From a virus (lineage: Duplodnaviria > Heunggongvirae > Uroviricota > Caudoviricetes), in the IMG/VR virus record IMGVR_UViG_3300035042_000139: 64,000 nucleotides of DNA; one strand, 5' to 3'. Positions within the stretch are counted from its first letter, which is position 1. Each line of letters opens with the position of its first letter. The notes beneath the pieces were generated by a model, which worked only from the letters and a program-made list of their open reading frames with translations, did no database searches and had not been told where the DNA came from. The position numbers and the translations under genes were made by a program. Shown piece by piece: positions 5,535 to 36,915 of this stretch.

Positions 5535-5708
5535 TTGCCTACATATAATTACAGGTGTAAAGATTGTGGCCACGAGTTTTCTGAGATTCAGAAAATAAGT
5601 GATGAGCCTTTTAAAGAATGTCCAAAATGTGAAGGTGAGCTTGAAAAGATTTTTAAAAAACCACCCGGCATTCAATTTAAAGGTCCAGGATTTTATAGTA
5701 ATACTTAA
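5535..5708 (+). CDS. FmdB-family zinc-ribbon regulatory protein (TTG start). Not in the ORF track.
   Basis: RBS AGGAGG at 5521-5526 then TTG 5535. MPTYNYRCKDCGHEF...CPKCEG: CxxC-x17-CxxC with the typical FmdB N-terminus 'Y.Y.C..CGH.FE'. Confidence 0.6.
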   Translation: MPTYNYRCKDCGHEFSEIQKISDEPFKECPKCEGELEKIFKKPPGIQFKGPGFYSNT

Positions 5709-5933: not shown

Positions 5934-7034
5934 ATGACAGGAAAAGACAAAGGTATGATGGGGCTTATAGCATTTTTGGTGATTGTGTTTATTGCAGGTG
6001 TAGGATTTTTTATGGTAACGGATAATATCGAGCCAGGGTTTGTTGGCTATGTTTATGACCGTACCATTGACCCTGATAATCCAGATGAAAATAGTGTACC
6101 TGTATTAGAGGGTACATCAGTAATCAACCAGCCAAGGTATGGACTTGTTTGGCTTAATCCTTTTACTCAAGAAATGTATATCTCACCAACAACTATTATC
6201 AGCAGAAACTGGACTAAAAATGAGCAGGAAGGCTCAAAACAGGATGACTCAATTGAGGCAGGAACAATTGAGGGCAAGAATGTAATTACTGATATTTATA
6301 TGTCAGTTCAGCCAGAAAATGTAGCTAAGATTATTAAAAATTGGGGCGTCAAAAAAGACTTCGAGACTATTGTAGATGATGAGCTTTACGGAGTTATGAA
6401 GGGCGAGGTTAAAAAGGTAACAAGAAAAACTTCAGTCTATAACTTCCAGGCCAAGGTTAGTGAAATGCAGACAGAAATCTTTGAGAACTTAAAAGAAACA
6501 ATGTCTGATAAGTATGGCATTAGATTAATCAGGTTTGAATTTGGAAACATATTAGTGCCAGAGGAAATTCAGGCTGAGATTAACCGAAAAACATCAGCTA
6601 TTAATGAGGTAGAACTTGCTGAGCTGGATGCTAAAAGACAGGCTGAGGTTAACGCTAAAGAGGTAGCAAGACAGGAAGCTGAGTCAAAGCAGGAGCTTAT
6701 TCAAAGACAGGCAGCTGCTGATGCTGATGCTTATGAGAAGGAAAGAAAAGCAGATGCAGAAGCTTACTCTATTGAAAGAAAGGCAGAGGCTATTAAGATG
6801 GCAGCTAACAATAAATATGAAGCAGCTATTTTAGAAAAGAAAGCAGAGTTAGAAAAACAGCAGGCTTATACAGATGTGTATTTTGCTAACAGAGAGCTTG
6901 ACCTGCAGACTAAAGCTGTTACAAGCATCAATGATAAGATGAAGATTATTGTTACTCCAGAAGACGGCAGTGGTATAGGTTCAATGCCCGGTATCATGGG
7001 TATCTTAAATGAAATCAGCGGGGCGATGGAATAA
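5934..7034 (+). CDS. SPFH / Band-7 (flotillin/HflK-like) membrane-scaffold protein.
   Basis: N-terminal TM helix (GLIAFLVIVFIAGVGFFMV), SPFH-like core, and a long Ala/Glu/Lys-rich coiled coil ('EVELAELDAKRQAEVNAKEVARQEAESKQELIQRQAAADADAYEKERKADAEAY...') typical of flotillin and HflK/C. Confidence 0.65.
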   Translation: MTGKDKGMMGLIAFLVIVFIAGVGFFMVTDNIEPGFVGYVYDRTIDPDNPDENSVPVLEGTSVINQPRYGLVWLNPFTQEMYISPTTIISRNWTKNEQEGSKQDDSIEAGTIEGKNVITDIYMSVQPENVAKIIKNWGVKKDFETIVDDELYGVMKGEVKKVTRKTSVYNFQAKVSEMQTEIFENLKETMSDKYGIRLIRFEFGNILVPEEIQAEINRKTSAINEVELAELDAKRQAEVNAKEVARQEAESKQELIQRQAAADADAYEKERKADAEAYSIERKAEAIKMAANNKYEAAILEKKAELEKQQAYTDVYFANRELDLQTKAVTSINDKMKIIVTPEDGSGIGSMPGIMGILNEISGAME

Positions 7035-7525: not shown

Positions 7526-7642
7526 CTTCTTATATAGGTTTACTTAAACAACAAAAGTATAGGCAGTAAATTTTTTAATCTTACATTATAGAAAATAAAA
7601 AAGCAAATTTAATTTTAAAAAGGATTGGAAGTGGTTTATTTA

Positions 7643-8338
7643 ATGACATGTGTAGTTGGATTTAAAGCAGAAAAAGAAAACAAAATATATATTGGCGCTG
7701 ACACTGTTGGCTCTACAAATTACACAAAAGAAAACAGGAAAGACGGCAAGGTATTTGCTTCAGGTGATTTCACAATAGGTTTTGCGGGTTCTTATAGAAT
7801 GGGACAGGTATTGCAGTATAAATTAGATGTTCCGGCACAGAAAGACTCTCAGACAGACCACGGCTATATGGCCACGACATTTATCGATGCAGTTAGGAGA
7901 CTTTTTGATAAAAATGGTATTATGGGTGTCGACCAGGACAACAAGGAATTTGGCGGTTTGTTTTTAGTAGCATATAAAAATGAGCTCTATAGAATCGACT
8001 ATGACTTTCAGGTTGGTATCGGAAGTGAAGACTTTACCGCTATAGGTTCCGGTGGAGAGGTAGCTTTGGGGGCTATGTACGCTTTAAATAGTTTTGATGA
8101 AGTTGGGCCTACCGAAAAGGTAACGATGTCTATTCTGGCAGCTATGGACCTCACACCCTTTGTTGGTGGAGATATAGAGATTGTAACTCATACCTATGTT
8201 GAAGAAAAAGAGATTGATAAGGTATACAAGAAACTTTCTGATATGACAGATGAGGACCTAATGGAGATTCAGGAATATCTTGATATGACTATTTGCGATA
8301 ATGACATGATGGCTCTCGGAGTTGATGAGTGTGCGTAG
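7643..8338 (+). CDS. HslV/20S-proteasome-beta-like Ntn-hydrolase peptidase (T1 family).
   Basis: With start at ATG 7643 the N-terminus is M-TCVVGFKAEKENKIYIGADTVGS, i.e. nucleophile Thr1 after Met removal, matching HslV/proteasome beta 'TT.VG.K..DGVVLAAD'. A later 'FTAIGSGGEVALGAMYAL' matches the GSGG motif. Confidence 0.55.
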   Translation: MTCVVGFKAEKENKIYIGADTVGSTNYTKENRKDGKVFASGDFTIGFAGSYRMGQVLQYKLDVPAQKDSQTDHGYMATTFIDAVRRLFDKNGIMGVDQDNKEFGGLFLVAYKNELYRIDYDFQVGIGSEDFTAIGSGGEVALGAMYALNSFDEVGPTEKVTMSILAAMDLTPFVGGDIEIVTHTYVEEKEIDKVYKKLSDMTDEDLMEIQEYLDMTICDNDMMALGVDECA

Positions 8339-9974
8339 CAAGAAGACAAAATATATATTTGTTACTGGTGGAGTGGTTTCGGGCTTAGGTAAAGGCCTTA
8401 CTGCTGCTTCACTTGGTTTTTTGCTTAAAGCTAGAGGGTTAAATATTAAGGTTCAGAAATTTGACCCCTATATCAATGTTGACCCCGGGACAATGAACCC
8501 TATAGAACATGGAGAGGTTTTTGTAACATCAGATGGGGCTGAAACTGATTTAGACCTCGGTCATTATGAAAGGTTTATCAACATTGAGCTTTCTGGTAAA
8601 AACTCAGTTTCTACAGGTCAAATATATCAGACTGTTTTAGATAATGAAAGAGAAGGAAAGTATTTAGGAAAAACAATACAGGTTATACCGCACATAACAG
8701 ACGAGATTAAAAGAAGAATGACATTACCAGAAGATAAAAATACAGATATTATTATTATTGAAGTTGGAGGAACTGTAGGAGATATTGAAAGCTATCCATT
8801 TATAGAAGCTGTAAGGCAGTTAAGACATGACTTGGGCTTTGATAATACATTCCATATTCACTGCACTTTAATACCTTATATGCATAAGGTCGGTGAATAC
8901 AAGTCAAAGCCAACACAGCAGAGTTTAAAAGAACTTAGGAGCTTGGGTGTTCAGCCAGATGCCGTTGTTGGCAGAATAAAAGGTCAGATGCCGGAAGATA
9001 TAAAAGATAAAATTTCACTCTTTGGAAATATAGATAAAAGATTAATATTTGAATCTGTAGATGTTGAGCACATATACGATATTCCTCTGAAATATGAAGA
9101 GCAGTTTATGGCTGAAAGGGTTATGAAAGGTATAGGTTTTGATTTGTCTGTACCAGATATGACTCCCGGAGTTAAGTTTAAGGATATGGATATGTGGGAA
9201 ACTATGGTCAAAAATTTAAAAGAAGAAAAAGAAAGTGTAAATATCGCTGTTGTTGGTAAATACACAGAGCTTGAAGATGCTTATCTTAGTATCAAAGAAG
9301 CTTTATATCATGCAGGTGTCGCAAACAATCTTGATGTAGAAATTGCATTTATAGATGCTGAATACTTAGAAGATTTAAGCTGTGATGAAGCAGTAAAAAT
9401 AACATTAAAAGAATATGATGGAATACTAGTTCCTGGTGGATTCGGCAAAAGAGGTATTGAGGGTAAGATAAAAGCAGCTAGGTATGCTAGAAAAAACAAT
9501 GTCCCTTACTTTGGTATCTGCCTAGGAATGCAGGTTGCAGCTATTGAGTATGCCAGAAACAAGCTTGGCCTAGAAGATGCCAACAGCTTAGAGTTTGACA
9601 GTGAAACTAAAAACCCTGTAATCACTCTCATGAATGAGCAGAAAGAAATTAATAATAAAGGTGGAACAATGAGGCTTGGCTCTTATGACTGCACTCTTGA
9701 TACTAATAGCAAGGCTTACGGAGCTTATAAAGAAGAGCATATTAGTGAAAGGCACAGACATCGCTTTGAATTTAATAATTATTTTACTGAGTTTTTTGAA
9801 AAAGGAATGATAGTTACTGGAATAAACCCGGACTTAAATCTTGCTGAAATAATTGAAATAGAGGACCACCCGTGGTTTGTTGGTGTGCAGTTTCACCCTG
9901 AGTTTAAGTCAAGGCCTTTAAGACCACATCCGTTATTTGTTGACTTTATAAAAAATGCTTCTACGAGGAGATGA
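8322..9974 (+). CDS. pyrG: CTP synthase (glutamine-hydrolysing).
   Basis: 'KYIFVTGGVVSGLGKG' N-terminal P-loop, 'DPYINVDPGTMNP', and a GATase domain with catalytic Cys in 'YFGICLGMQ' and 'HRHRFEFN'. Start overlaps the end of the HslV-like gene by about 17 nt. Confidence 0.95.
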   Translation: MMSVRSKKTKYIFVTGGVVSGLGKGLTAASLGFLLKARGLNIKVQKFDPYINVDPGTMNPIEHGEVFVTSDGAETDLDLGHYERFINIELSGKNSVSTGQIYQTVLDNEREGKYLGKTIQVIPHITDEIKRRMTLPEDKNTDIIIIEVGGTVGDIESYPFIEAVRQLRHDLGFDNTFHIHCTLIPYMHKVGEYKSKPTQQSLKELRSLGVQPDAVVGRIKGQMPEDIKDKISLFGNIDKRLIFESVDVEHIYDIPLKYEEQFMAERVMKGIGFDLSVPDMTPGVKFKDMDMWETMVKNLKEEKESVNIAVVGKYTELEDAYLSIKEALYHAGVANNLDVEIAFIDAEYLEDLSCDEAVKITLKEYDGILVPGGFGKRGIEGKIKAARYARKNNVPYFGICLGMQVAAIEYARNKLGLEDANSLEFDSETKNPVITLMNEQKEINNKGGTMRLGSYDCTLDTNSKAYGAYKEEHISERHRHRFEFNNYFTEFFEKGMIVTGINPDLNLAEIIEIEDHPWFVGVQFHPEFKSRPLRPHPLFVDFIKNASTRR

Positions 9975-14253: not shown

Positions 14254-14622
14254 AAAAGATTCGCAAAAAAGTTTCGCAATATTTTCGTATAATTCTTGTT
14301 TTACGAAATTTTTACCAAAAGAGAGGTTATTTTACTATTAAAATATTTTACATCCAAGTTATTTAATTCTAAATTATGTCTCAATATCCCAAGATATCTA
14401 GGTTTTTGGGATAAAATGGAAAAAATAACATAAATTATATGGCCTCATATCGTCAAAAGTTTTTGGATTGTGGGTATAACTAAATACTTTTTTAAAATTA
14501 GAGGGGTTAGTTCTTTTATTCCTATATTCATTAATTCATATTATGATTAAACATAATAAAAATATATGTTTTTATATTCTTAAACATACTTAGTTCATAA
14601 GAATAAATAAATTTAAGAAGGA
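14254..14622. promoter_or_regulatory. 370-bp AT-rich non-coding region with several inverted repeats. Candidate promoter/operator cluster or replication origin.
   Basis: TTCGCAA x2 direct (14260-14278). TTTCGTA/TACGAAA IR (14283-14308). TATCCCAA-13nt-TTGGGATA perfect 8-bp IR (14385-14413) containing a GATATC palindrome. ATTATG-ATTAAA-CATAAT (14538-14556). Confidence 0.35.
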
Positions 14623-16578: not shown

Positions 16579-16998
16579 ATGAGAAGGGTAAATGCAGAAA
16601 CTATAAAAAAGAGGATGATGACAACAATGAGTAAGGAGCTTCTATTTTCTGTAACTAAAAACGATTTAGAAATTGAGACATTCCGCTCTGGTGGCCCGGG
16701 CGGACAAAACCAAAACTCACGAGAAACTGGTGTCAGAATTAGACATAAAGAGTCAGGGGCTGTGGCCGAGTCAAGAAACCACAGGACTCAGGCTAAGAAT
16801 AAAAAGGCTGCACTTGAAAGACTTGTAAAGACAGATGAATTTAAAAAATGGCATAAGCTTAAAACAAGTTATGCTCTAAAGGGTGTTGATGACTATAAAA
16901 AACAAATAGAAAAAGAAGTTGATGCATGGATGAGTGATAGGAATTTAAAAATAGAAAGTTTTAATGAAGATACTAAGCAATGGGAGGAATTAAATTAA
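16579..16998 (+). CDS. RF-1 domain (GGQ) peptidyl-tRNA hydrolase, ArfB/ICT1-like ribosome-rescue factor family.
   Basis: 'FRSGGPGGQNQNSRETGVRIRHKESG' is the canonical GGQ motif and context. Size of about 125-139 aa equals ArfB. Likely start at ATG 16618 or 16630 (MMTTMSKE...). A Cys-rich micro-ORF lies at 16500..16634 in another frame. Confidence 0.65.
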   Translation: MRRVNAETIKKRMMTTMSKELLFSVTKNDLEIETFRSGGPGGQNQNSRETGVRIRHKESGAVAESRNHRTQAKNKKAALERLVKTDEFKKWHKLKTSYALKGVDDYKKQIEKEVDAWMSDRNLKIESFNEDTKQWEELN

Positions 16999-17297
16999 TG
17001 ATAGAGATTACAAATATAGATGAGTTTAATTATTTTATCAACCAGGATGAATATGTTCTGATTGATTTTTATGCTAAATGGTGTGGAAAGTGTAAGCAAC
17101 TTAAAGGAAGGTTAATGGCCCAGTATGCTGATAAGTTTGATATTTACACAGTTGATGTTGACTCTTTTGAGGCTTTAGCTGAAGAGTATAACGTAAAAGG
17201 ACTTCCGAAACTTATATTGTTTAAAAATGGAGAGATTGTTGAAGAACAGGATAAATCAGCTATGGTATTTCTAAAAAAGATAAAAACATTACTATAA
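16980..17297 (+). CDS. trx: Thioredoxin.
   Basis: 'IDFYAKWCGKCKQL' CxxC active site, 'GLPKLILFKNGE' cis-Pro region, 105 aa. Confidence 0.8.
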   Translation: MGGIKLMIEITNIDEFNYFINQDEYVLIDFYAKWCGKCKQLKGRLMAQYADKFDIYTVDVDSFEALAEEYNVKGLPKLILFKNGEIVEEQDKSAMVFLKKIKTLL

Positions 17298-17335
17298 AAA
17301 AAGAAGCCGTCCATTTAAGGGCGGCTTTTATTGTT
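17296..17335. terminator. Bidirectional rho-independent terminator at the convergence point of the + and - strand modules.
   Basis: A-run 17296-17302, AAGCCGTCC (17304-17312), loop, GGGCGGCTT (17319-17327), then TTTTA. Confidence 0.7.
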
Positions 17336-17340
17336 TCTAT

Positions 17341-17925
17341 TTAGTTATCTATTACTAAATCAGCTGTAGAATAAATGGCTACACCTAATGCTATGTACTC
17401 AATTTTTTCTATAAAGCTCATTGAATACATTTTTTCCTGTTCATTTATTATATCGTCTTTAAGCATTAGCTGCTCTTTCTGCAGTCCTATCACCTGATTG
17501 GCGTTAGCTATTGCACTGTCAAAAGATTCTTTCTGGTTTTTAATAGAAACTTTAAGCATGTCATTTTCATCTTCTAAGGATAATATGTATTTATCTTGGA
17601 GTTCATTCTCCTTTTTTAATCCTTTTATTAAAGATTCCTGTTTGGCTACAATGCTTTTTAGTTTCGATACTTCATTTTCAAGAGATTTAATCTTATTTGC
17701 AACATCAATAGCTTCCTGTTCTGTTAAATCATATTTTTTACTTTCTATTATCTTTTTTAGAGTTTCTATCTCTGCCTTTTGAGCTTTTATAGTGTTGCTT
17801 AGTTCTACTATTGTTGCAGACTCAGCATTAGCCTTCTGACTTCCCATCATCATTAATACTGTCAATAATATAATTATAAGCAGCGTCGCCATCAGAGTCG
17901 CCAAATTCTCCGGGTGCATTCTCAT
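17341..17925 (-). CDS. Membrane-anchored coiled-coil protein.
   Basis: N-terminal hydrophobic segment 'LATLMATLLIIILLTVLMMM' then about 150 aa of heptad-rich coiled coil. The true start is probably an internal Met (about 17892 or 17856). Confidence 0.45.
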   Translation of the reverse strand: MRMHPENLATLMATLLIIILLTVLMMMGSQKANAESATIVELSNTIKAQKAEIETLKKIIESKKYDLTEQEAIDVANKIKSLENEVSKLKSIVAKQESLIKGLKKENELQDKYILSLEDENDMLKVSIKNQKESFDSAIANANQVIGLQKEQLMLKDDIINEQEKMYSMSFIEKIEYIALGVAIYSTADLVIDN

Positions 17926-18268
17926 CGTCTTCGAGCTCCTTTTTTAGGGTTTCAATTTCCTTTTCTGTCTCCCTATTTTTTTCTTTCTGTTGTTTGATTT
18001 CATTATCAATTAAATCTCTTTTCTCTTTCATATCTTTAGTTTTCTGAATCGAATCCTCAAACTCTTTGTCATACTTCTTAGCGTCTTTTTTTAATTGTTC
18101 CTGCCTGATTTTTACCTCTTCTCTAATTCTCTTTTCTTTTTCTTTTTTGCTTTTGATTTTTCTTTCTATCTCTTCCTTTTCTTTATTTTTGCTGAAGAAA
18201 ACAAATGCTAAAGCAGCACCTATCCCTGATAGAATATAAACCAAAGCTTCCTTTATTTTATTAAACAT
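17828..18268 (-). CDS. Membrane-anchored Lys/Glu-rich coiled-coil protein.
   Basis: TM 'ALVYILSGIGAALAFVFF' then a KE-rich helix and an acidic C-terminus. Confidence 0.4.
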   Translation of the reverse strand: MFNKIKEALVYILSGIGAALAFVFFSKNKEKEEIERKIKSKKEKEKRIREEVKIRQEQLKKDAKKYDKEFEDSIQKTKDMKEKRDLIDNEIKQQKEKNRETEKEIETLKKELEDDENAPGEFGDSDGDAAYNYIIDSINDDGKSEG

Positions 18269-18288
18269 AAATTCGCACCTTCTTTTTT

Positions 18289-18534
18289 TTATTTAAAGTT
18301 CTTAAGCAGTTCCTTTAAAATACCCTTAAGCATCGTCATGCCGCCGGAAAGACCTACAACAAGATAAAAGACAATTTTTACATCTTCAAAATCAATCATC
18401 TTGAGGAAAAAAGCCGGCACAGTAATCAAAAGAAGCACCAAGGCTAAGATATAATCTATAATTCTCTCCACTCTGTCATCTACTCCATCCTGGTCCCTGT
18501 CTAAAAACTCTCTTTTTTCTTCCATTAAGACCAC
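18289..18534 (-). CDS. Small two-TM membrane protein (holin-like topology).
   Basis: 81 aa. Two TM helices (IIDYILALVLLLITVPAFFL and VFYLVVGLSGGMTML) and a charged N-terminus. Confidence 0.35.
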   Translation of the reverse strand: MVLMEEKREFLDRDQDGVDDRVERIIDYILALVLLLITVPAFFLKMIDFEDVKIVFYLVVGLSGGMTMLKGILKELLKNFK

Positions 18535-18578
18535 TCCTATTTAAATTTTTACCCCCTTTTAACCCCCTTTTTATGCCT

Positions 18579-18959
18579 TTACCGTCTCTCAATATCCTTT
18601 TTTATACTCTCAATCTCTCCCTTTAAGTCGACCTTTACATCGTTTAAATCATTTCTCATTTCTGCTACAGCTGTTGCTATCTCTTTAATTGCATAACGGT
18701 GTTCTCCCATCTGCACCTCTAATGTGTGTGCAAATTTAGTCTGATTTTTTTGTGACTGAGCTAAGAGCTTTCTCGTCTCTTCCGCATCACAGATTACTTT
18801 ATCAAGCATCTCCGATTTCTCTTTTGAGTTTTCTCTTTCTCTTTCAATCATGACTTTAACTATCGAATAGATTACACCAACTAACATAGCTATCAAGTAG
18901 AGATAAGGGTTTGATAGTGTGTCTCCTAGTACTGAAATGAATTTTGTGAATTCTACCAT
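18579..18959 (-). CDS. Membrane-anchored coiled-coil protein.
   Basis: TM 'YLYLIAMLVGVIYSIVKVMI' followed by a coiled coil. Confidence 0.4.
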   Translation of the reverse strand: MVEFTKFISVLGDTLSNPYLYLIAMLVGVIYSIVKVMIERERENSKEKSEMLDKVICDAEETRKLLAQSQKNQTKFAHTLEVQMGEHRYAIKEIATAVAEMRNDLNDVKVDLKGEIESIKKDIERR

Positions 18960-19017: not shown

Positions 19018-20127
19018 TTATAACTTATCACCTCCATTTAAGATAATGTAGGACCTTGGCTCAATTTTAAACCCCTGAACCATTTCTGCGTTGCCTCCGT
19101 TGTTGATTATTAGTTCGTAACATCCTCTTTTAGCGTGGTAAATGTTACATGTTGATTTGATAATCTCAAGGCCCTCTTTTTTTGTTTTCTTTTTAACTCC
19201 GATAAGAGTATCTATTTGGTCTTTCAGTTCATATCTAAAGTAATCATCCCAGAAAACAACGACTGGATTGTCCTGGAAGAATATATATGCATATGCAAGC
19301 TCTTTTTTCTCTGAGATTGCATCCTTATTTGAACTTCTCTCTCTTCTTTCAATATCGTGATTAGCAAGGAAGTTAACCCTTTTATTTTTGTTTATTTCTT
19401 CAAGTTTTCTGATATCAAAATCAGGGTTCATACACATATCTCTTAATTTGTAAAATAAGGGAAAATTTAATAAATTTAAGTCTGGATTATAAGAGTGAAC
19501 CTCATTTAGTTTTGAATCTGCACCTTCCCAGTATTCGCCCATCATAAATGTGTCAAGCTTAAAATATTGTGTGAATACTTTTGTAAAATCCCAGCGCATA
19601 TCTTTTATGTTATCTAGTCGAAAACTGTCGAAACCTATCTCATCTTTGAGCCATTTTGCCCAGTTTATTAAACCATCTGCCATATATTTATCATCAGAGT
19701 AATAACAGATTGTTTCTCCAAAGGAGTTGCGGCTGTCGCAGCCACCACATTCGTGACAGAAGTGCTTGTAATTTTTTTTAAATAATTCATCTTCAAATTT
19801 TGTGTATGTTTTTTTATCAAAATAAGGATTGTACTCAAGCTCTCCTCCAAGCATATGGCCTAATACTAAATCAGCCATGACATTAACATCTTCTTTATGT
19901 AGTTTATTTATTAGTTTTTTGAGTGTTTCTTTAGTACCAAACCTAGAATCTAAGTTGTAATGTTCTTTAATATCATAGCCCATTGAGTTAGCACCATTCA
20001 TGCCCTTTGAAACAGGTGGAAGCCAGACAGTATCAAAGCCCTTGTTTGCTATCTCTTCAGCCAGATACTCTAAATGCTCCCACCAATTCTCAAGACAATT
20101 CCAATAAAACCCCTGTAAGATTACCAA
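19018..20127 (-). CDS. Glycoside hydrolase family 13 alpha-amylase catalytic domain protein.
   Basis: 'VILQGFYWN' N-terminus. GH13 regions I 'DLVLGH', II 'GFDSFRLDNIKD', III 'MMGEYWEG' and IV 'NFLANHDIERR'. Confidence 0.7.
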   Translation of the reverse strand: MVILQGFYWNCLENWWEHLEYLAEEIANKGFDTVWLPPVSKGMNGANSMGYDIKEHYNLDSRFGTKETLKKLINKLHKEDVNVMADLVLGHMLGGELEYNPYFDKKTYTKFEDELFKKNYKHFCHECGGCDSRNSFGETICYYSDDKYMADGLINWAKWLKDEIGFDSFRLDNIKDMRWDFTKVFTQYFKLDTFMMGEYWEGADSKLNEVHSYNPDLNLLNFPLFYKLRDMCMNPDFDIRKLEEINKNKRVNFLANHDIERRERSSNKDAISEKKELAYAYIFFQDNPVVVFWDDYFRYELKDQIDTLIGVKKKTKKEGLEIIKSTCNIYHAKRGCYELIINNGGNAEMVQGFKIEPRSYIILNGGDKL

Positions 20128-20141
20128 AGCCTCTCCACTCC

Positions 20142-20837
20142 TTAAAAATAGTAATTGTAATGTTTTAATGCTCCATTTTCTATAACCACTGCTAGTGCTT
20201 CAAGTTCTTTTTCTATTTCAAAACTAGTTTTAATATCATTTATTTTTTCATCTAATATTGTTTCGAATTCCTTTAAGTCCTCATCAGTTAAAGGCTCTGA
20301 TACATCTTCGTATTTTACCCTGTTTACTGTAAAATAAAGTCTTAAATTATCTTCTATCTTTTTTGTTTCCAGATTGTAATCAAGACCTATAAGGTAAGCT
20401 TTATCCAAAATAGATTCACTTAAAACTAAATCATCAGTATTCGTCATACTCTTAAGTTTGTTGAGCTGTTCATCATTTAAGCCCTTTTTGTACAAATAAA
20501 ATGTTACGCTTTTTTTGTCGTAAGAGATAATTGAATAAATCGAAGATAAAAAACTTAAGCTTGTAATATCAAAGAGCTTATTATTAATCTCCTGATTTAT
20601 AACATCACCCATCTTAAGCTCATCTAATACCTTTAAATACTTTTCGGTGTCGGCAACTTTATACTCATTAAATGTATAGTAAACTTCCTTTTTATCTATA
20701 TTAACTATGTCGGGTAGAGCTTCTTCGATTTCAAAGCCAAGCTCTTTTATTTTACTTTTTAGTTTTTCCTTGTTTTTGAACCTGTAGTCTTCATTTTTTA
20801 TTAAGCCGTCACTAATCTTAGTCATTACTTTTTCCAC
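20142..20837 (-). CDS. Hypothetical protein.
   Basis: 231-aa ORF, no recognised motif. Confidence 0.4.
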   Translation of the reverse strand: MEKVMTKISDGLIKNEDYRFKNKEKLKSKIKELGFEIEEALPDIVNIDKKEVYYTFNEYKVADTEKYLKVLDELKMGDVINQEINNKLFDITSLSFLSSIYSIISYDKKSVTFYLYKKGLNDEQLNKLKSMTNTDDLVLSESILDKAYLIGLDYNLETKKIEDNLRLYFTVNRVKYEDVSEPLTDEDLKEFETILDEKINDIKTSFEIEKELEALAVVIENGALKHYNYYF

Positions 20838-21521: not shown

Positions 21522-22115
21522 TTAGCTGTTGTATCTTATTACTGCATTGACTACATCGTTCATCATTAACTTTAAGTAGTCATCGTTATTTAGTTTCTTT
21601 TCTTCTTCTATATTTGTAATAAAACCCATCTCTATCAAGACTGCTGGCATATGAGTGTGTTTTAATACGTATAAGTTCTTTCTTTCTTTAAGGCCTCTAT
21701 CACGAGGATTAAGGTCCCTTATTACTTCTTCTTGTATTAATCCTGCAAGCTTTTTACCTCCTGTACTGGTAGGATAATGAAGTGTTTCAAAGCCACTAGC
21801 ACTCTCTGCAGCTGCTGCATTAGCATGGATTGAAATAAATAAATCTGCCTTTGCATTGTTTGCTATATTGCATCTTTCACTAAGCCTTACATATTCGTCT
21901 TTATCCCTAATCATTACTATTTCAAACCCTGTTTTTAGTTCGAACAAACTTTTAAGCATTTTTGCAGCTTTTAAGTTCTTTTCGCTCTCTTCTGTGTAGA
22001 TTTCATCTTTATAAATATCATCATCATGTTTTTTATCTTCAGGGTCAACAGCCCCCCCGTCTTTTCCTCCATGTCCTGCCGATATTGCAATTATTAAGTT
22101 TTCTTTATATGGCAT
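21522..22115 (-). CDS. N-acetylmuramoyl-L-alanine amidase (Amidase_3), endolysin.
   Basis: 'IAISAGHGGKDGGA', 'EKNLKAAKML', 'VMIRDKDEYV...RCNIANNAKADLFISIHANA', 'SGFET'. Confidence 0.75.
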   Translation of the reverse strand: MPYKENLIIAISAGHGGKDGGAVDPEDKKHDDDIYKDEIYTEESEKNLKAAKMLKSLFELKTGFEIVMIRDKDEYVRLSERCNIANNAKADLFISIHANAAAAESASGFETLHYPTSTGGKKLAGLIQEEVIRDLNPRDRGLKERKNLYVLKHTHMPAVLIEMGFITNIEEEKKLNNDDYLKLMMNDVVNAVIRYNS

Positions 22116-22174: not shown

Positions 22175-22408
22175 TTAAAGTTTATTTTTTTTATTCTCAT
22201 AAGTAAATTTAATATCGAATGGTTCTCCTTTTAGCTTACTTATTTCTGCTGCAAGTACATGAACTGCCTCTATTAATTCTTCTTTTGTAATGTAGTCTAG
22301 GTCGTTTGCTAGCTCAGCGTTTTCATCTGTTAATTTTTCATAACCTTTTGAAATAACCAGCCTATCTCCATTATCTAAAACATTATATTTAGCCATCATA
22401 CTCACCAT
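22175..22408 (-). CDS. Small acidic hypothetical protein immediately downstream of (and overlapping) radical-SAM paralog 1.
   Basis: 77 aa with a 20-nt overlap with the upstream gene. Confidence 0.35.
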   Translation of the reverse strand: MVSMMAKYNVLDNGDRLVISKGYEKLTDENAELANDLDYITKEELIEAVHVLAAEISKLKGEPFDIKFTYENKKNKL

Positions 22409-23292
22409 TTTCTATTTTTTTTAAATGATTATCAAAATGCTCTATTATAGAATCATCTTTTTTATATCTTATTTTGTTGCACCGCTTACACATATCGGGG
22501 TATTCCGAGACATCTTTTCTTAATTTATCTCTAAACCTATTTGCTTTTTTGGAATAAAATATTTCATAGACTGTATTTTTAAAAACATTCCCAAAAGACA
22601 TATCTTCAAATTCCTCTAGTTCTGTTCGTATATGGCAACAGGGATTAACCTCCCCCAAATAGTTAATTGATATATTTATAAATGGTTCATAGCATTTAAC
22701 ACTTCTGTTATCTCTATTATTTTTGTATTTTACCTTTCTCTTTTTATTTGATTCTTTATCCTCATAAAATATATCTTCAGTTATTATACCTGCCCTGTCC
22801 TCTATTTCTTTATTTTCTGGCCAATTATAAATAACTATAACTTTTGTTGCATCTTTATGGGTTGCTAATATTTTTGACTTACACTCAATAACATCAAGAA
22901 TACCACAGCCAGAATCCATTAATTTATTTTTCCAGTAATTTATACCCTTCATATCATAATCCATAATATGAAGCCTGTTAAGATTTAAACCATCTAAATT
23001 ATTATAATTTATAAAATCTCCATTTGTTGATATGTCAATCCTTACATTATCTAAAATATCTCTTGCTTGATTAACTCTTTTTTTGAGAATCTCAATATTT
23101 ATCATTGGCTCTGAATAACCATTTAATGTTAATATTTTATTAGGCTGATTAAAGCCTAATTCTTTTAATTCATTTAATATTTCTAAATATTTATTTTCTG
23201 AAAGTTCTTTATAAAAACTTCTATCTACATATTTGTTTGTGCACCACTCACAAGAGCGATTGCACTGACTAAAAATTTCAATTTCAACCCTC
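22389..23292 (-). CDS. Radical SAM / SPASM-like domain protein (paralog 1). N-terminal region lacks a canonical start codon, so this is either a non-ATG start or a pseudogene.
   Basis: ORF track starts at Met 23105, but the same frame stays open upstream to a TAG at about 23296 and encodes 'VEIEIFSQCNRSCEWCTNKY' (CX3CX2C). C-terminus has the 'CYEP...NPCCHIR...FGN....EI...C.RCNK' SPASM-like cluster. Start coordinate uncertain. Confidence 0.5.
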
Positions 23293-23323: not shown

Positions 23324-24196
23324 TTAAACAATATTCCCGTTTACTTTTTTCGCGTGTGTTCTTCCCTCTCTATCTTTGTTGCAGTACTTGCATATCTCAG
23401 GCATAGTTTCTACAGTAGAAAACTTGTTGTACAAATCAAAAACAAACTTAGAATTATATATTTCTGGAAGAGTTTTTTCTTTTATATTTCCAAGAATAAA
23501 TCTTTTATGCTTATCATGGTCGCTTCTCATATGACAGCAAGGCATTACATTCCCGTTGTAGTCTACATATATTGACAAAGAAGGTTCACTGCATACATAA
23601 TCTCTTTTTTCTTTTTTTCCTCTCCATAAAAGTGGCTTATCTTCATTATATATAAATTCATCATCTAAAATTCCACCTCTATCTTCAAGTAGAGCATGTT
23701 TTGGCCAGTCAACTTTATATATTAATTTGTCAATATTTTTGCTTTTAGCATGTATCGTCTTTGTGTCTTCTTTAATTTCAATTATAGAGAACCCTAAATC
23801 TTTAACTCTTTTTTTGCACTTATCCATTCCTTCCATATCATAATCCATAATATTTAACCTATCTATAATTAGATTTTCTAATGATTTCTCATTAACAAAA
23901 TCTCCATTTGTTTTTACAACAACTCTTGCGTTTGGAAATGTTTTATTAATTTCCCGAGTCCGTTTTTTTAAAAGTTCAGGATTTAAAAATGGCTCATGAT
24001 ATCTTCCTATAACTATTTGCACAAATACATTCTGGCCAAAACCATCTTCTCCAAGTTCTTTTAATATTTTTGTGAAATGTTCATCGCTCATTTCTTCATA
24101 AAAAGTTCTATCTATATCCTTATTAGGACACCACGAACATTTTCTGTTGCATTGACTATGGAGCTCTAATTCTAAATATTTCATTCCAGAAATCAT
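23324..24196 (-). CDS. Radical SAM / SPASM-like domain protein (paralog 2).
   Basis: 'ELELHSQCNRKCSWCPN' (CX3CX2C), 'KTNGDF', 'LNIMDYDMEG', C-terminal 'CSEP...MPCCHMR...LGNI...C.YCNK'. Confidence 0.65.
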   Translation of the reverse strand: MISGMKYLELELHSQCNRKCSWCPNKDIDRTFYEEMSDEHFTKILKELGEDGFGQNVFVQIVIGRYHEPFLNPELLKKRTREINKTFPNARVVVKTNGDFVNEKSLENLIIDRLNIMDYDMEGMDKCKKRVKDLGFSIIEIKEDTKTIHAKSKNIDKLIYKVDWPKHALLEDRGGILDDEFIYNEDKPLLWRGKKEKRDYVCSEPSLSIYVDYNGNVMPCCHMRSDHDKHKRFILGNIKEKTLPEIYNSKFVFDLYNKFSTVETMPEICKYCNKDREGRTHAKKVNGNIV

Positions 24197-24198
24197 TA

Positions 24199-25044
24199 TT
24201 AACTCACCTCTTCTACAAAATTATTCCATTCTTTTTCGTCGTTAATTATTTTATGAGGCTTTATCATTTCGCCAGTCCTATTTTTGTAATCCCACAAAAT
24301 ATCTCTCATCCAATGTGGTATTGCCTGATTAAAAAATAATAAATCAGCATAATATTTTGCCTCTATTTCGAGCAGTATTTTTCTGTCGTCATAAAATTTA
24401 ACATTGTCAATATTAAAATATTTTTCTTCCAATATCTTTTTTATTTCATCTGTATTGTTTCTGTCACCATAAAGTACCACAAAAGGAACTGCTTGCTTTA
24501 TTTTTCTTTCGACTTTTGCTAAATCTCTCCTTGACTTTAAAGGAAAATAATCTCGTTTTACTTCTAGGCATAACAGTTTCTTATCTTCAGGCCAGATTCC
24601 TTCATCAACTAAGAGTTGTATAGAATAAAGTCTGTGATTACCTTCGTATATAAAAAGTTCATCATGAGGCATTCTGTTTGCTATAACAAGAGGCCAATAT
24701 GTTCCGTTTTCTAGTATATCTAAACCTAATTTTTTTTTATTATTTATAGTTTCCATAAGATATTTGTCCTCAACAAATTCATCCCAAAATTTTTGTGTCT
24801 GGTCATGCCTAACACGAATTTTTCTTGGGTGAAGCCATCTAAACTCAAAATATTCTAAATCAAGTATATTTTTGATATTATTATAGATATGCGTATTATA
24901 AAGGTAATGTATATCCTCTTTGCTGTACTTTATCTTGTTTTTTTGCAATAAGTAATTACCATGCTCATGCCCTACTATATTAGCAAAAACGAAATCGTTT
25001 ATCTTTTCATCAAAGAACAAAGGCCTAATAATATTTGGCTCCAT
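24199..25044 (-). CDS. Hypothetical protein (possible ParB/Srx-like fold).
   Basis: 'LFIYEGNHRLYSIQLL' loosely resembles the ParB 'DG.HRL.A' motif. Weak. Confidence 0.35.
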   Translation of the reverse strand: MEPNIIRPLFFDEKINDFVFANIVGHEHGNYLLQKNKIKYSKEDIHYLYNTHIYNNIKNILDLEYFEFRWLHPRKIRVRHDQTQKFWDEFVEDKYLMETINNKKKLGLDILENGTYWPLVIANRMPHDELFIYEGNHRLYSIQLLVDEGIWPEDKKLLCLEVKRDYFPLKSRRDLAKVERKIKQAVPFVVLYGDRNNTDEIKKILEEKYFNIDNVKFYDDRKILLEIEAKYYADLLFFNQAIPHWMRDILWDYKNRTGEMIKPHKIINDEKEWNNFVEEVS

Positions 25045-35203: not shown

Positions 35204-35424
35204 CTGTTTAATACAGCTTACAGAGTAATCTGTAACCCACTGTGTTTTAACATGGTGGATAGGGTGAAAAAGATTCACGAGTCAACCATCCTGTAACTTT
35301 CTTAATCCTGAATCACCCACTTGTGGGTTTAAGAAGGTGCGAAAACTTGTTAATAGACTATACTGAGTATGGTTTATTACTTAACAAGCTCCCTTCTAAT
35401 CTTGTTTTTGATTAGGTGGGAGAA
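35204..35424 (+). ncRNA. Putative omega-RNA (right-end RNA) scaffold of the TnpB element.
   Basis: Non-coding stretch of about 200 nt from the tnpB stop through the right-end hairpin (35396-35415), as in characterised TnpB/omega-RNA loci. The guide would derive from flanking DNA from about 35421 onward. Confidence 0.4.
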
Positions 35425-36092
35425 GTTGACTTATTTTCCCACTTCCATTTAGCAAATTCATAATCCTCTTTGGTGTCTATATCTATTACTTCTTTGTTTG
35501 GTACTTCTATTAAAGAATGGTTGTCTTTTAGCATCTGCCCGTCTTTGAAAAAATTATCTTTATTAAAAATATGAAAGCAGTGAGCAGCTTCGTAATAATC
35601 AGGTATTTCTTTTGTTGTCAGCCTCTCATAATTTATATCTGTTAAGCATTGATTTTGATTATTAAATAACCAGTTTTTATAAACTTTTACGCTTGTTGCA
35701 TAATTGCCCTCACAGTAATCTTCATCTAAACTATCGAATGTCTCTAATGACTTTAAGATTGTTTCTTTTTTTAAAAAAGCAAGGCACGGATTTAAAAACA
35801 TTAAATGTGTATCTTCTACTTCTTTTAAGTCTTTAAATATATACTCAAGCGGGCCATCAACTAAAGCCGTAATTTTATCTCTTAAAATAACTGTTAGATT
35901 ATCATATTTTTGAGCAATCTCTACAAGCTCTTTGTCGTAGCATAGTGCATATTTATTATACTTATCTGGCAGACTGTTTAGCTTTTTACAGGCTATATCC
36001 CAAAGGTTTGTATCTCCTAAAGGAAGTACTAATTTGTTTGGAAGCCTTTCGCTTTGTAATCTACCAGGAATAAAAACTCCGATTTTTTTCAT
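35412..36092 (-). CDS. Acylneuraminate/3-deoxy-manno-octulosonate cytidylyltransferase family (NeuA/KdsB-like, CTP_transf_3).
   Basis: 'KIGVFIPGRLQSERLPNKLVLPLGD' matches 'IIPAR.GS.R.P.K.L..' N-terminal motif of CMP-ulosonic acid synthetases. 226 aa. Its stop codon lies inside the IS right-end hairpin. Confidence 0.55.
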   Translation of the reverse strand: MKKIGVFIPGRLQSERLPNKLVLPLGDTNLWDIACKKLNSLPDKYNKYALCYDKELVEIAQKYDNLTVILRDKITALVDGPLEYIFKDLKEVEDTHLMFLNPCLAFLKKETILKSLETFDSLDEDYCEGNYATSVKVYKNWLFNNQNQCLTDINYERLTTKEIPDYYEAAHCFHIFNKDNFFKDGQMLKDNHSLIEVPNKEVIDIDTKEDYEFAKWKWENKSTSPT

Positions 36093-36111: not shown

Positions 36112-36915
36112 TCAATATTTTATACCGGGATTCTCCCTGGTATACCTTCCCTCTTCTTTGATGCAGTATTTACACTGCTCGGGAAAGTCTAAGTTTTGAA
36201 GTCTTAACTGCAGGTCTTTTAGCTTTTTAGAATCCAGTATTGACCTGATACTTTCGTTTTTTATGTTACCAAGTACAAATTCCTGGTGGATATTATTATC
36301 GCTTCTGAAGTTGCAGCAGGGCATCACATTGCAGTTGTAGTCTATCCCAAGAAAATGAAAAGGCTCATAACATTTCTTTTTTCTTATTTTTTTATCTGCT
36401 TTTTCTAAAGAGCCCGCCCTGTCTCCAAAGCTTTCCAGTCTGGCCCAGTCGCTAACATACACTACTTCCATGTCGTGACCAAAACCGTATATCTTATTAT
36501 CTATTATTTCTGTTATCTCAAAATTTAAATCTTCCATTCTTTGAATACAGTAGCCTAAACCTTTGTTGTCGTAATCCATTATTGAAAGCTCATCTATCTC
36601 AACTCTATCTAAAATTGAGTTTGTAAGATAATCTCCATTGGTGTTTGTTACAAGTCTTGCTTCAGGTAATAACAACCTTGCTTTTTTAGTATACTGAGCA
36701 AAAATTTCTTTCAAAGCAAAAGGTTCATTATACCTTGAGTAACTTATTGTTCCTTTATAATCGATGGACTTGAGTTCGTTTAAAATATTTGTATAATTAG
36801 TCTTAGGCAGTATCTTTTTTATCTTTCGATTTATATATTTATTAGGACACCAACTGCATGTTCTGTTGCAATAGCTGTGTATTTCTATTTCTACCATTCT
36901 TAGATTAGTGTACAT
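36112..36915 (-). CDS. Radical SAM / SPASM-like domain protein (paralog 3).
   Basis: 'VEIEIHSYCNRTCSWCPN', 'TNTNGDY', 'LSIMDYDNKG', C-terminal 'CYEP...MPCCNFR...LGNI...C.YC'. Confidence 0.65.
   Translation of the reverse strand: MYTNLRMVEIEIHSYCNRTCSWCPNKYINRKIKKILPKTNYTNILNELKSIDYKGTISYSRYNEPFALKEIFAQYTKKARLLLPEARLVTNTNGDYLTNSILDRVEIDELSIMDYDNKGLGYCIQRMEDLNFEITEIIDNKIYGFGHDMEVVYVSDWARLESFGDRAGSLEKADKKIRKKKCYEPFHFLGIDYNCNVMPCCNFRSDNNIHQEFVLGNIKNESIRSILDSKKLKDLQLRLQNLDFPEQCKYCIKEEGRYTRENPGIKY

Follow-up and report, generated by a model that had tools for sequence, protein, structure and literature searches.

Viral alpha-amylases have already been listed as auxiliary metabolic genes from rumen, mangrove-soil and activated-sludge viromes, in each case by sequence-based assignment (PMC6460857; bioRxiv 10.1101/2021.11.08.467685), and a further virome report of an alpha-amylase (PMC5704599) is cited in PMC6460857. 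In these examples, a GH13 gene is located on a viral contig between viral genes and is assumed to boost carbohydrate breakdown. The gene described here follows the same concept. It is located at 19018..20127 on the minus strand of a 64,000-nucleotide stretch of phage DNA (IMG/VR record IMGVR_UViG_3300035042_000139; hereafter the window, 64 kb), which is part of a phage of approximately 200 kb, and it encodes a compact GH13 alpha-amylase of 369 amino acids (aa). The virome amylases belong to other GH13 lineages and other hosts (Actinobacteria, Proteobacteria, Cytophagales and others) and were mostly found on short contigs, whereas the window amylase is encoded in near-complete genomes of approximately 200 kb and has counterparts in several phage lineages that share a host order.

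With regard to enzymes of solved structure, the best relative is the archaeal (Ca,Zn)-dependent alpha-amylase of Pyrococcus woesei/furiosus (1mwo/1mxd), which shows a TM-score of about 0.81 to the model of the phage protein and an aligned catalytic triad. In contrast to the phage enzyme, it is secreted and hyperthermophilic, has a more extensive domain C (crystallised protein, 435 aa) and uses Asn110 as a calcium ligand, where the phage family has Gly; the identity is only about 25-27%. The plant alpha-amylases (barley AMY1/AMY2 and rice AmyI-1) are of similar size (about 403 aa), have a small domain C of five strands and give the best target-normalised TM-scores (0.74-0.75), but they are secreted, calcium-dependent eukaryotic enzymes with 20-23% identity to the phage amylase. 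The 365-aa chromosomal alpha-amylases of Halanaerobium, which are known by annotation only, share with the phage enzyme the architecture of domains A, B and small C, the start at beta-strand 1, the triad, the region I Gly and a cluster of four cysteines. Their genes are found on bacterial chromosomes, between the genes for pyruvate formate-lyase (PFL) with its activase (PFL-AE) and RecQ, whereas the phage gene lies between an endolysin gene and holin-like genes. A functional analogy, and no more than that, is provided by LamA of Legionella pneumophila, an injected amylase effector that degrades host glycogen (PMC8262857): it is likewise a parasite-encoded amylase acting on glycogen of the host cytoplasm, but it is a bacterial type IV secretion effector that functions in eukaryotic cells.

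In the literature searched, we found no biochemically tested virome alpha-amylase, no paper on a Halanaerobium phage carrying an amylase and no paper in which degradation of host glycogen was demonstrated for a phage amylase. Comparable viral alpha-amylase genes are already on record, and a host-derived metabolic gene is in itself fairly ordinary. The novelty is minor and lies in an uncharacterised compact GH13 family with an all-or-none cluster of four cysteines, the loss of the calcium-ligand Asn and the recurrence across phages. We consider it reasonably probable that the window gene is a host-derived auxiliary metabolic gene, whose product would be an active cytoplasmic compact GH13 alpha-amylase hydrolysing intracellular alpha-1,4-glucan during infection.

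The amylase gene, its signature regions and its fold

The gene is the single long open reading frame (ORF) at its locus; the ORFs on the opposite strand within it are short (40-60 aa) and are regarded as spurious. Translation starts at a TTG located 14 nt past the stop codon of the upstream gene. This start is credible because a good ribosome-binding site, TAAGGAGTGGAGAGGCT, precedes it and because its position matches the first residue of the cellular homologues (MVILQGFYW in the phage protein, MLILQAFYW in the homologues). The overlap between the Shine-Dalgarno region and the upstream stop codon implies co-transcription or translational coupling of the two genes. The GC content is 34% for the amylase gene and 33% for both the phage and Halanaerobium.

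A preliminary description of this DNA had proposed a 369-aa protein of the GH13 alpha-amylase family with all four GH13 signature regions. The ORF is as described, and its orientation on the minus strand, which had not been given, is added here. The family assignment is borne out by Pfam, phmmer, a family profile, an AlphaFold model and Foldseek. The Pfam profile PF00128 matches with 60.8 bits (gathering cutoff 22), although it covers only aa 17-92. In a phmmer search against all PDB chains, the top match was the P. woesei alpha-amylase 1mwo (6.6e-32), followed by Halothermothrix orenii AmyB (3bc9) and then by barley, rice and Bacillus liquefying amylases. A profile built from 29 family sequences, comprising the phage amylase and 28 relatives, retrieved 1mwo at 7e-63 over almost the full length. 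The best NCBIfam match was NF006970 (PRK09441-type), with 250 bits against an equivalog cutoff of 516, and the phage amylase is accordingly related to the PRK09441-type group but falls outside any named equivalog.

All four signature regions were located in the sequence (Table 1), including region II, GFDSFRLDNIKD, with the nucleophile, and region III, GEYWEG, with the catalytic Glu. In the alignment with 1mwo, D172, E198 and D258 of the phage amylase fall on D198, E222 and D289, which we take to be the catalytic triad of the P. woesei enzyme, so that the conservation of the triad, left by the preliminary description to a proper alignment, is confirmed. Seven residues (D86, H91, R170, K175, E198, H257 and D258) are invariant across the 29 family members, and the nucleophile D172 is kept in 28 of them. 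In the exception, P0012, encoded on a 1.5-kb contig, Gly replaces Asp172 and the cysteine cluster is also absent; this protein may be an inactive derivative.

An AlphaFold2 model computed on the family alignment showed a mean predicted local distance difference test score (pLDDT) of 87 and a predicted TM-score (pTM) of 0.89. When it was compared with the PDB using Foldseek, the top matches were all alpha-amylases, of archaeal, plant and Bacillus origin, with a probability of 1.00 and query-normalised TM-scores of 0.81-0.85. The model exhibits the arrangement that defines the GH13 fold, namely a (beta/alpha)8 catalytic barrel (domain A) with domain B (approximately aa 92-147) inserted after beta-strand 3. 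The protein had previously been regarded as a catalytic core only; this view has to be corrected, as the model shows domain B and a reduced C-terminal domain C of six short beta strands (aa 321-364, pLDDT above 90) as well, the latter resembling the small domain C of the plant enzymes.

Two peculiarities of the family are notable, one in domain B and one in region I. The domain-B segment HFCHECGGCDSRNSFGETICYY contains four cysteines (HFCHECGGC...TICYY) which are present in 25 of the 29 family sequences and have been lost jointly in the other four. The counterparts of Cys124 and Cys141 in 1mwo are H147 and C166, presumably ligands of its Zn site, and Gly128 aligns with H152, which we take to be the third Zn ligand of the P. 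woesei amylase. As the four cysteines are either kept or lost together, they suggest that a Cys4 metal site has replaced the calcium site usually found, which would be fitting for an enzyme of the cytoplasm. In region I, the Asn of classical alpha-amylases is a calcium ligand. At this position (N110 in 1mwo), all 29 family sequences carry Gly, or Ala in distant members, and the phage amylase thus lacks the Asn of the D-x-V-x-N-H motif typical of calcium-dependent amylases. The family may be of interest to GH13 enzymology as a minimal, probably calcium-independent and salt-adapted type of amylase.

These same features could indicate another GH13 specificity. The enzyme might be a transglycosylase, or its substrates might be a compatible solute of the disaccharide type or short maltooligosaccharides, and the enzyme would then alter the sugar or osmolyte pool of an infected halophile rather than its glycogen. 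The identity to characterised enzymes of only about 25%, the NF006970 score below the equivalog cutoff, the unusual Gly90 in region I, the cysteine cluster in domain B and the halophilic character of the host group all fit with this explanation. Nevertheless, the best matches in both sequence and fold are all true archaeal, plant and Bacillus liquefying alpha-amylases, and sucrose- and trehalose-acting GH13 enzymes appear as weak N-terminal matches only. We therefore regard a different specificity as clearly unlikely.

Cellular location and cellular relatives

A Kyte-Doolittle scan of the whole protein detected neither a signal peptide nor a membrane segment in the amylase: the highest mean over 19 residues was 0.72, compared with 2.1-2.7 in the neighbouring membrane proteins. 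The polypeptide opens at beta-strand 1, which leaves no space for an N-terminal extension, and forms a single GH13 unit from residue 2 onwards, and no signal-like N-terminal extension was found in the 28 aligned relatives. Based on the lack of a hydrophobic segment, the start at beta-strand 1 and the absence of such an extension in the relatives, the amylase is predicted to be made and folded in the cytoplasm.

This location is difficult to reconcile with a depolymerase acting on an alpha-glucan capsule, exopolysaccharide (EPS) or surface layer, a role which the preliminary description had proposed together with a search for a signal peptide. A depolymerase of this kind requires either export or attachment to the virion, and the protein has neither a secretion signal nor an attachment module; no virion-attachment, tail-fibre or spike, beta-helix or extra domain was found in it. 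The gene does lie downstream of tail-fibre genes and is transcribed in the same direction, as would be expected if the enzyme were virion-associated and digested an alpha-glucan capsule or receptor at adsorption. However, its length and architecture are those of the cytoplasmic host enzyme, with the Halanaerobium 365-aa proteins being collinear with it, and PHROGs contain no family, structural or other, that matches the amylase, nor any for its two upstream neighbours. In addition, its orthologues in other phages are mostly found among replication and nucleotide genes, i.e. those for ribonucleotide reductase (RNR), thymidylate synthase (ThyA), dihydrofolate reductase (DHFR), thymidine kinase (TK), primase and helicase. 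A virion-associated depolymerase is thus extremely improbable.

The nearest cellular proteins, with 61-64% identity, are annotated as alpha-amylases, have 365 aa and are encoded on the chromosomes of Halanaerobium congolense, H. saccharolyticum, H. hydrogeniformans and several Halanaerobium metagenome-assembled genomes. They are present in at least nine genomes and are collinear with the phage amylase over its full length. Further relatives in the Halanaerobiales are found in Halothermothrix orenii (45%), Halonatronum (43%) and Halanaerobacter (41%). Among cellular chromosomes, identities above 40% are restricted to this order; beyond it, relatives with 27-36% identity occur in Phycisphaerales, Ignavibacteria, Melioribacteraceae and a few other lineages. 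The window also carries an IS605 element whose TnpB has relatives with 59-76% identity, including some in Halanaerobiales genomes; the best named matches are Natroniella, Ca. Frackibacter and Anoxybacter (59-62%), which supports the host at the level of the order only. Given the closest cellular amylases, the GC content and the TnpB relatives, the host of the phage is probably Halanaerobium or a close relative. Halanaerobiales have been reported from oil and gas reservoirs, from shales subjected to hydraulic fracturing and from the sediments of saline lakes (PMC13340142).

According to a recent analysis of the whole genus, glgBC and pulA are conserved in Halanaerobium (PMC13340142), which makes glycogen a plausible polymer of the host and a plausible substrate of the phage enzyme. 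In Halanaerobium, the amylase gene follows those for PFL and PFL-AE and precedes recQ, with a GlgC-like nucleotidyltransferase encoded three genes away. In Halonatronum and Halanaerobacter, it follows a TetR regulator, and in the latter a CBM48-GH13 enzyme is encoded two genes downstream. No conserved glycogen or maltodextrin operon was found around the cellular orthologues at the Halanaerobium, Halonatronum and Halanaerobacter loci.

Recurrence in other phages and the favoured metabolic role

The compact amylase was found at 51-65% identity in at least five other, otherwise unrelated phage contexts. In the first, it is encoded between RecJ and a group comprising DHFR, ThyA, TK and Tad2. In the second, on an IMG/VR contig of 87.7 kb, it is encoded between a DnaG primase with RNase H and an intein-containing RNR followed by a dUTPase, and in the third (97.8 kb), between a glutaredoxin and a class II RNR. 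In the fourth (35-55 kb), the order is terminase large subunit, a 263-aa protein, amylase and SNF2 helicase. In the fifth (77-195 kb), a tape-measure-like protein, a virion structural protein and RusA precede the amylase, which faces a DNA polymerase. Three of these contexts therefore place the gene among replication and nucleotide genes, one places it after the terminase and one at the boundary between structural and replication genes. Near the amylase, the five loci have no further genes in common with the window, and the placement within a lysis cassette is not conserved in other phages.

Two of the amylase-carrying phages exhibit features of their own: a Tad2-like (anti-Thoeris) protein is encoded at 14586..14843 of L008, and an RNR interrupted by an intein/LAGLIDADG element at 5689..8799 of L024. 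L018 to L023, IMG/VR viral contigs of 86-128 kb from sample 3300045988, carry a gene for a different, distantly related short GH13 protein (348 aa, 21-23% identity) next to those for a DnaB-like helicase and a primase (for example, 9947..10993 of L018). Compact GH13 genes without a signal sequence in phage replication modules may thus be a wider phenomenon.

The amylase is missing from reference phage collections. A megablast search with 10 kb around the amylase against 50,697 GenBank phage records gave no match. With tblastn, the amylase gave only matches of up to 40% identity in the GenBank phage records, mostly on unannotated contigs labelled as Listeria, Enterococcus or Staphylococcus phage, which we suspect to be host DNA. 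BFVD contained no phage GH13 amylase, and the only clear GH13 protein in it was from a giant virus. In a rough neighbour-joining tree, computed without support values, the chromosomal clade of Halanaerobium nests among phage-borne branches. Little weight is placed on this tree. That the family is primarily phage-borne, the chromosomal copy of Halanaerobium having been acquired from phages, is a remote possibility.

Among three near-identical phage genomes, the gene differs by 16-17 synonymous and 5-7 non-synonymous substitutions, which gives a ratio of non-synonymous to synonymous rates (dN/dS) of 0.07-0.13. Of the seven variable residues, none is catalytic and none is a cysteine of the cluster; one variant, G129N, affects a position enclosed by the cluster and flanked by C127 and C130. 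Purifying selection maintains the gene. This is not what would be expected of a neutral passenger taken up from the host and not used by the phage. Such a passenger might be suspected from the position of the gene at the junction of two convergent transcription units and beside an ORFan, and the IS605 element in the window reveals ongoing gene flux. The catalytic residues are nevertheless intact, no cellular genome is closer than 64% identity, which excludes a recent capture, and the gene is retained in four assemblies of this phage and independently present in the other phage contexts. We consider a passenger gene to be very improbable.

The explanation that we favour remains that of an auxiliary metabolic gene. 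The amylase gene is flanked by viral genes on viral contigs of 188-213 kb, tail, virion and endolysin genes being found on one side and those for RecJ, a DnaD-like loader and CTP synthase on the other, and homologues are present in the presumed host lineage, the metabolic role being deduced from membership of the GH13 family. A metabolic role is favoured because the protein corresponds one to one to an enzyme of the host cytoplasm and because its gene travels with replication and nucleotide genes in most of the other phages. The mobilisation of host glycogen, which had been put forward as a second possibility for this gene, is therefore the option towards which the evidence points, as a tentative assignment.

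For the substrate, the time of action and the advantage gained by the phage, we infer the following. Expressed from the late minus-strand operon during infection, the amylase would cleave internal alpha-1,4 bonds of storage glycogen or of imported maltodextrins within the cell. Cleavage would proceed by the retaining double displacement of GH13 enzymes, with Asp172 as the nucleophile, Glu198 as the acid/base and Asp258 as the stabiliser of the transition state. The released oligosaccharides would then be taken over by host enzymes and would feed fermentation as well as pentose and nucleotide synthesis for phage production.

Several observations weigh against this explanation. The 64-kb window revealed no further gene of the glycogen pathway. 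The amylase gene belongs to a late structural and lysis operon, between the endolysin gene and holin/spanin-like genes, which is late for an energy supply. The identity to any characterised amylase is about 25-27%, which makes the exact specificity uncertain. The cellular orthologues are stand-alone genes, and the accumulation of glycogen by the host is deduced from gene content only. If host glycogen or maltodextrin is indeed degraded in infection, this would be a concrete case of phages reprogramming the use of stored carbon in Halanaerobiales. The availability of near-complete genomes and of a culturable host genus makes this metabolic role testable, and a 369-aa enzyme without a signal peptide is an easy candidate.

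Gene neighbourhood of the amylase

The features of the window are given in Table 1. From about 64 kb down to 25 kb, the minus strand encodes very large proteins matching PHROG tail and virion-structural families, with Phage_Tail_Tip, Laminin_G_3, fn3 and Ig-like Pfam domains. They are followed on the same strand by radical-SAM/SPASM proteins, the endolysin, a NeuB-like protein, a 231-aa ORFan, the amylase and four small membrane proteins. The gene is thus downstream of tail genes, as previously described. Its description as being next to the lysis genes stands insofar as it is embedded between the endolysin gene and holin/spanin-like genes, but the endolysin gene is two genes away rather than adjacent. 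The convergent block on the plus strand encodes RecJ, a DnaD-like loader, an HslV-like peptidase, CTP synthase, a metallophosphoesterase, an SNase, an RF-1-domain protein and thioredoxin.

Table 1 Features of the amylase gene and of the surrounding window
Feature	Coordinates	Strand	Remarks
Compact GH13 alpha-amylase gene (domains A, B and small C)	19018..20127	-	TTG start; without signal peptide
Shine-Dalgarno region TAAGGAGTGGAGAGGCT	20128..20144	-	Direct sequence read; overlaps stop codon of upstream gene
GH13 region I, DLVLGH	19855..19872	-	aa 86-91; D86 and H91 invariant; Gly90 at usual calcium-ligand Asn position
Domain-B segment HFCHECGGCDSRNSFGETICYY	19699..19764	-	Cys124, Cys127, Cys130, Cys141; putative Cys4 metal (Zn) site
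GH13 region II, GFDSFRLDNIKD	19600..19635	-	aa 165-176; Arg170, nucleophile Asp172 (codon 19612..19614), Lys175
GH13 region III, GEYWEG	19522..19539	-	aa 197-202; acid/base Glu198 (codon 19534..19536)
GH13 region IV, FLANHD	19354..19371	-	aa 253-258; His257, transition-state stabiliser Asp258 (codon 19354..19356)
Reduced C-terminal beta domain (domain C), six short strands	19030..19170	-	About aa 320-366; DSSP of model, pLDDT 92-97
231-aa ORFan directly upstream of amylase	20142..20837	-	No family match; only in this phage species
NeuB-like protein, 207 aa	20854..21477	-	Only N-terminal half of NeuB profile matched
Amidase_3 endolysin, two genes upstream of amylase	21522..22115	-	Pfam 5.9e-48; phrog_435 endolysin
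Four small membrane/coiled-coil proteins downstream of amylase	17341..18959	-	126, 81, 146 and 194 aa
GC-rich hairpin and T-run between convergent units	17302..17329		Likely end of minus-strand late operon
Small radical-SAM/SPASM (or SPASM/twitch-only) proteins	22389..23105, 23324..24196, 36112..36915	-	Amid tail-fibre genes
Protein possibly related to the radical-SAM/SPASM proteins	24199..25044		
CTP_transf_3 cytidylyltransferase	35412..36092	-	Among tail-fibre genes
IS605 OrfB/TnpB, 384 aa	34049..35203	+	Inserted midway through the minus-strand tail-fibre block, on the other strand
RF-1-domain protein, 139 aa	16579..16998	+	Possibly ArfB-like
Thioredoxin	16980..17297	+	
CTP synthase (pyrG), full-length	8322..9974	+	
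HslV-like peptidase	7625..8338	+	
Band_7/SPFH protein	5934..7034	+	

The four small proteins downstream of the amylase are a putative holin/spanin part of the lysis cassette. The 126-aa protein has one transmembrane segment and a coiled coil, the 81-aa protein has two transmembrane segments and is holin-like, and the 146-aa protein has one transmembrane segment and a charged coiled coil. The 194-aa protein has an N-terminal transmembrane segment, a coiled coil and a weak Rz/LysB-like match (TIGR03495, 2.7e-4), and its ORF overlaps that of the 146-aa protein by about 100 nt. If the host is a diderm Firmicute, the four could together make up its holin/spanin set of several components. Throughout the block from the endolysin to the membrane proteins, intergenic gaps are short, and no terminator-like hairpin precedes the one between the convergent units. 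Scans for promoters and terminators gave nothing above shuffled expectation, and only this hairpin is positionally meaningful. The order amidase, NeuB-like protein, ORFan, amylase and membrane proteins is the same in three other assemblies of this phage species, on contigs of 188,443, 203,584 and 212,659 bp from different samples, i.e. in four assemblies including the window.

The placement in a late operon could hint at a lysis-linked function. A late-made enzyme might escape through the holin lesions or upon lysis and degrade an alpha-glucan of the envelope, EPS or biofilm, thereby freeing the progeny to reach neighbouring cells. Such an accessory to lysis and dispersal would explain why the gene is embedded in the cassette, with short gaps, no terminator-like hairpin before the end of the operon and an order kept in four assemblies, and Halanaerobium genomes do carry EPS-synthesis genes (PMC13340142). 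However, no alpha-glucan envelope or EPS polymer of the host was reported in the literature searched, the amylase has no export signal and is collinear with a cytoplasmic host enzyme, and its orthologues are located away from lysis genes in the five other phage contexts. The surroundings of phage lysis genes are, moreover, a common landing site for accessory cargo. As the position in the cassette is not conserved in other phages and is such a site, we rate this role as unlikely, albeit worth considering.

The enzyme could also be part of the lysis programme itself, which we regard as a distinctly slim possibility. Co-expressed with the endolysin, the holin and the spanin-like proteins, it would rapidly chop glycogen to oligosaccharides just before lysis. 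These would raise the internal osmotic pressure of a low-turgor halophile, liquefy its cytoplasm, or both, resulting in efficient bursting and virion release. If true, this would be an undescribed class of lysis accessory, an 'osmotic booster'.

With regard to the genes between the endolysin and the amylase, no functional link between the 231-aa ORFan and the amylase was obtained. About 30 metagenome variants, on contigs of up to 212,659 bp, carry the ORFan with 93-100% identity. As it is restricted to this phage species, its recurrence reveals a wide distribution of the phage in JGI, ENA and Logan samples. The amylase and the NeuB-like gene were also considered as a sugar module, which was rejected, as the pairing is absent from every other amylase-carrying phage. 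The NeuB-like protein, the CTP_transf_3 cytidylyltransferase and the CTP synthase are possibly a scattered toolkit for nonulosonic acids and cytidine monophosphate (CMP)-sugars, which might serve the glycosylation of virion proteins or the mimicry of the host surface.

A scan of the 64-kb window for tRNA genes found none. The RF-1-domain protein, thioredoxin, the HslV-like peptidase and the Band_7/SPFH protein are host-like cargo. The CTP synthase is only 74% identical to its counterpart at 19883..21103 of L009, whereas the two genomes are otherwise 90-100% identical, which suggests a mosaic replacement of this host-like gene. The small radical-SAM/SPASM proteins are encoded in a region that is only 36-48% identical between genomes which are otherwise 90-100% identical, and which is therefore a hypervariable cassette beside receptor-binding proteins. 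The related genome L001 has three radical-SAM/SPASM genes in a row, and it carries a different copy of OrfB at another place.

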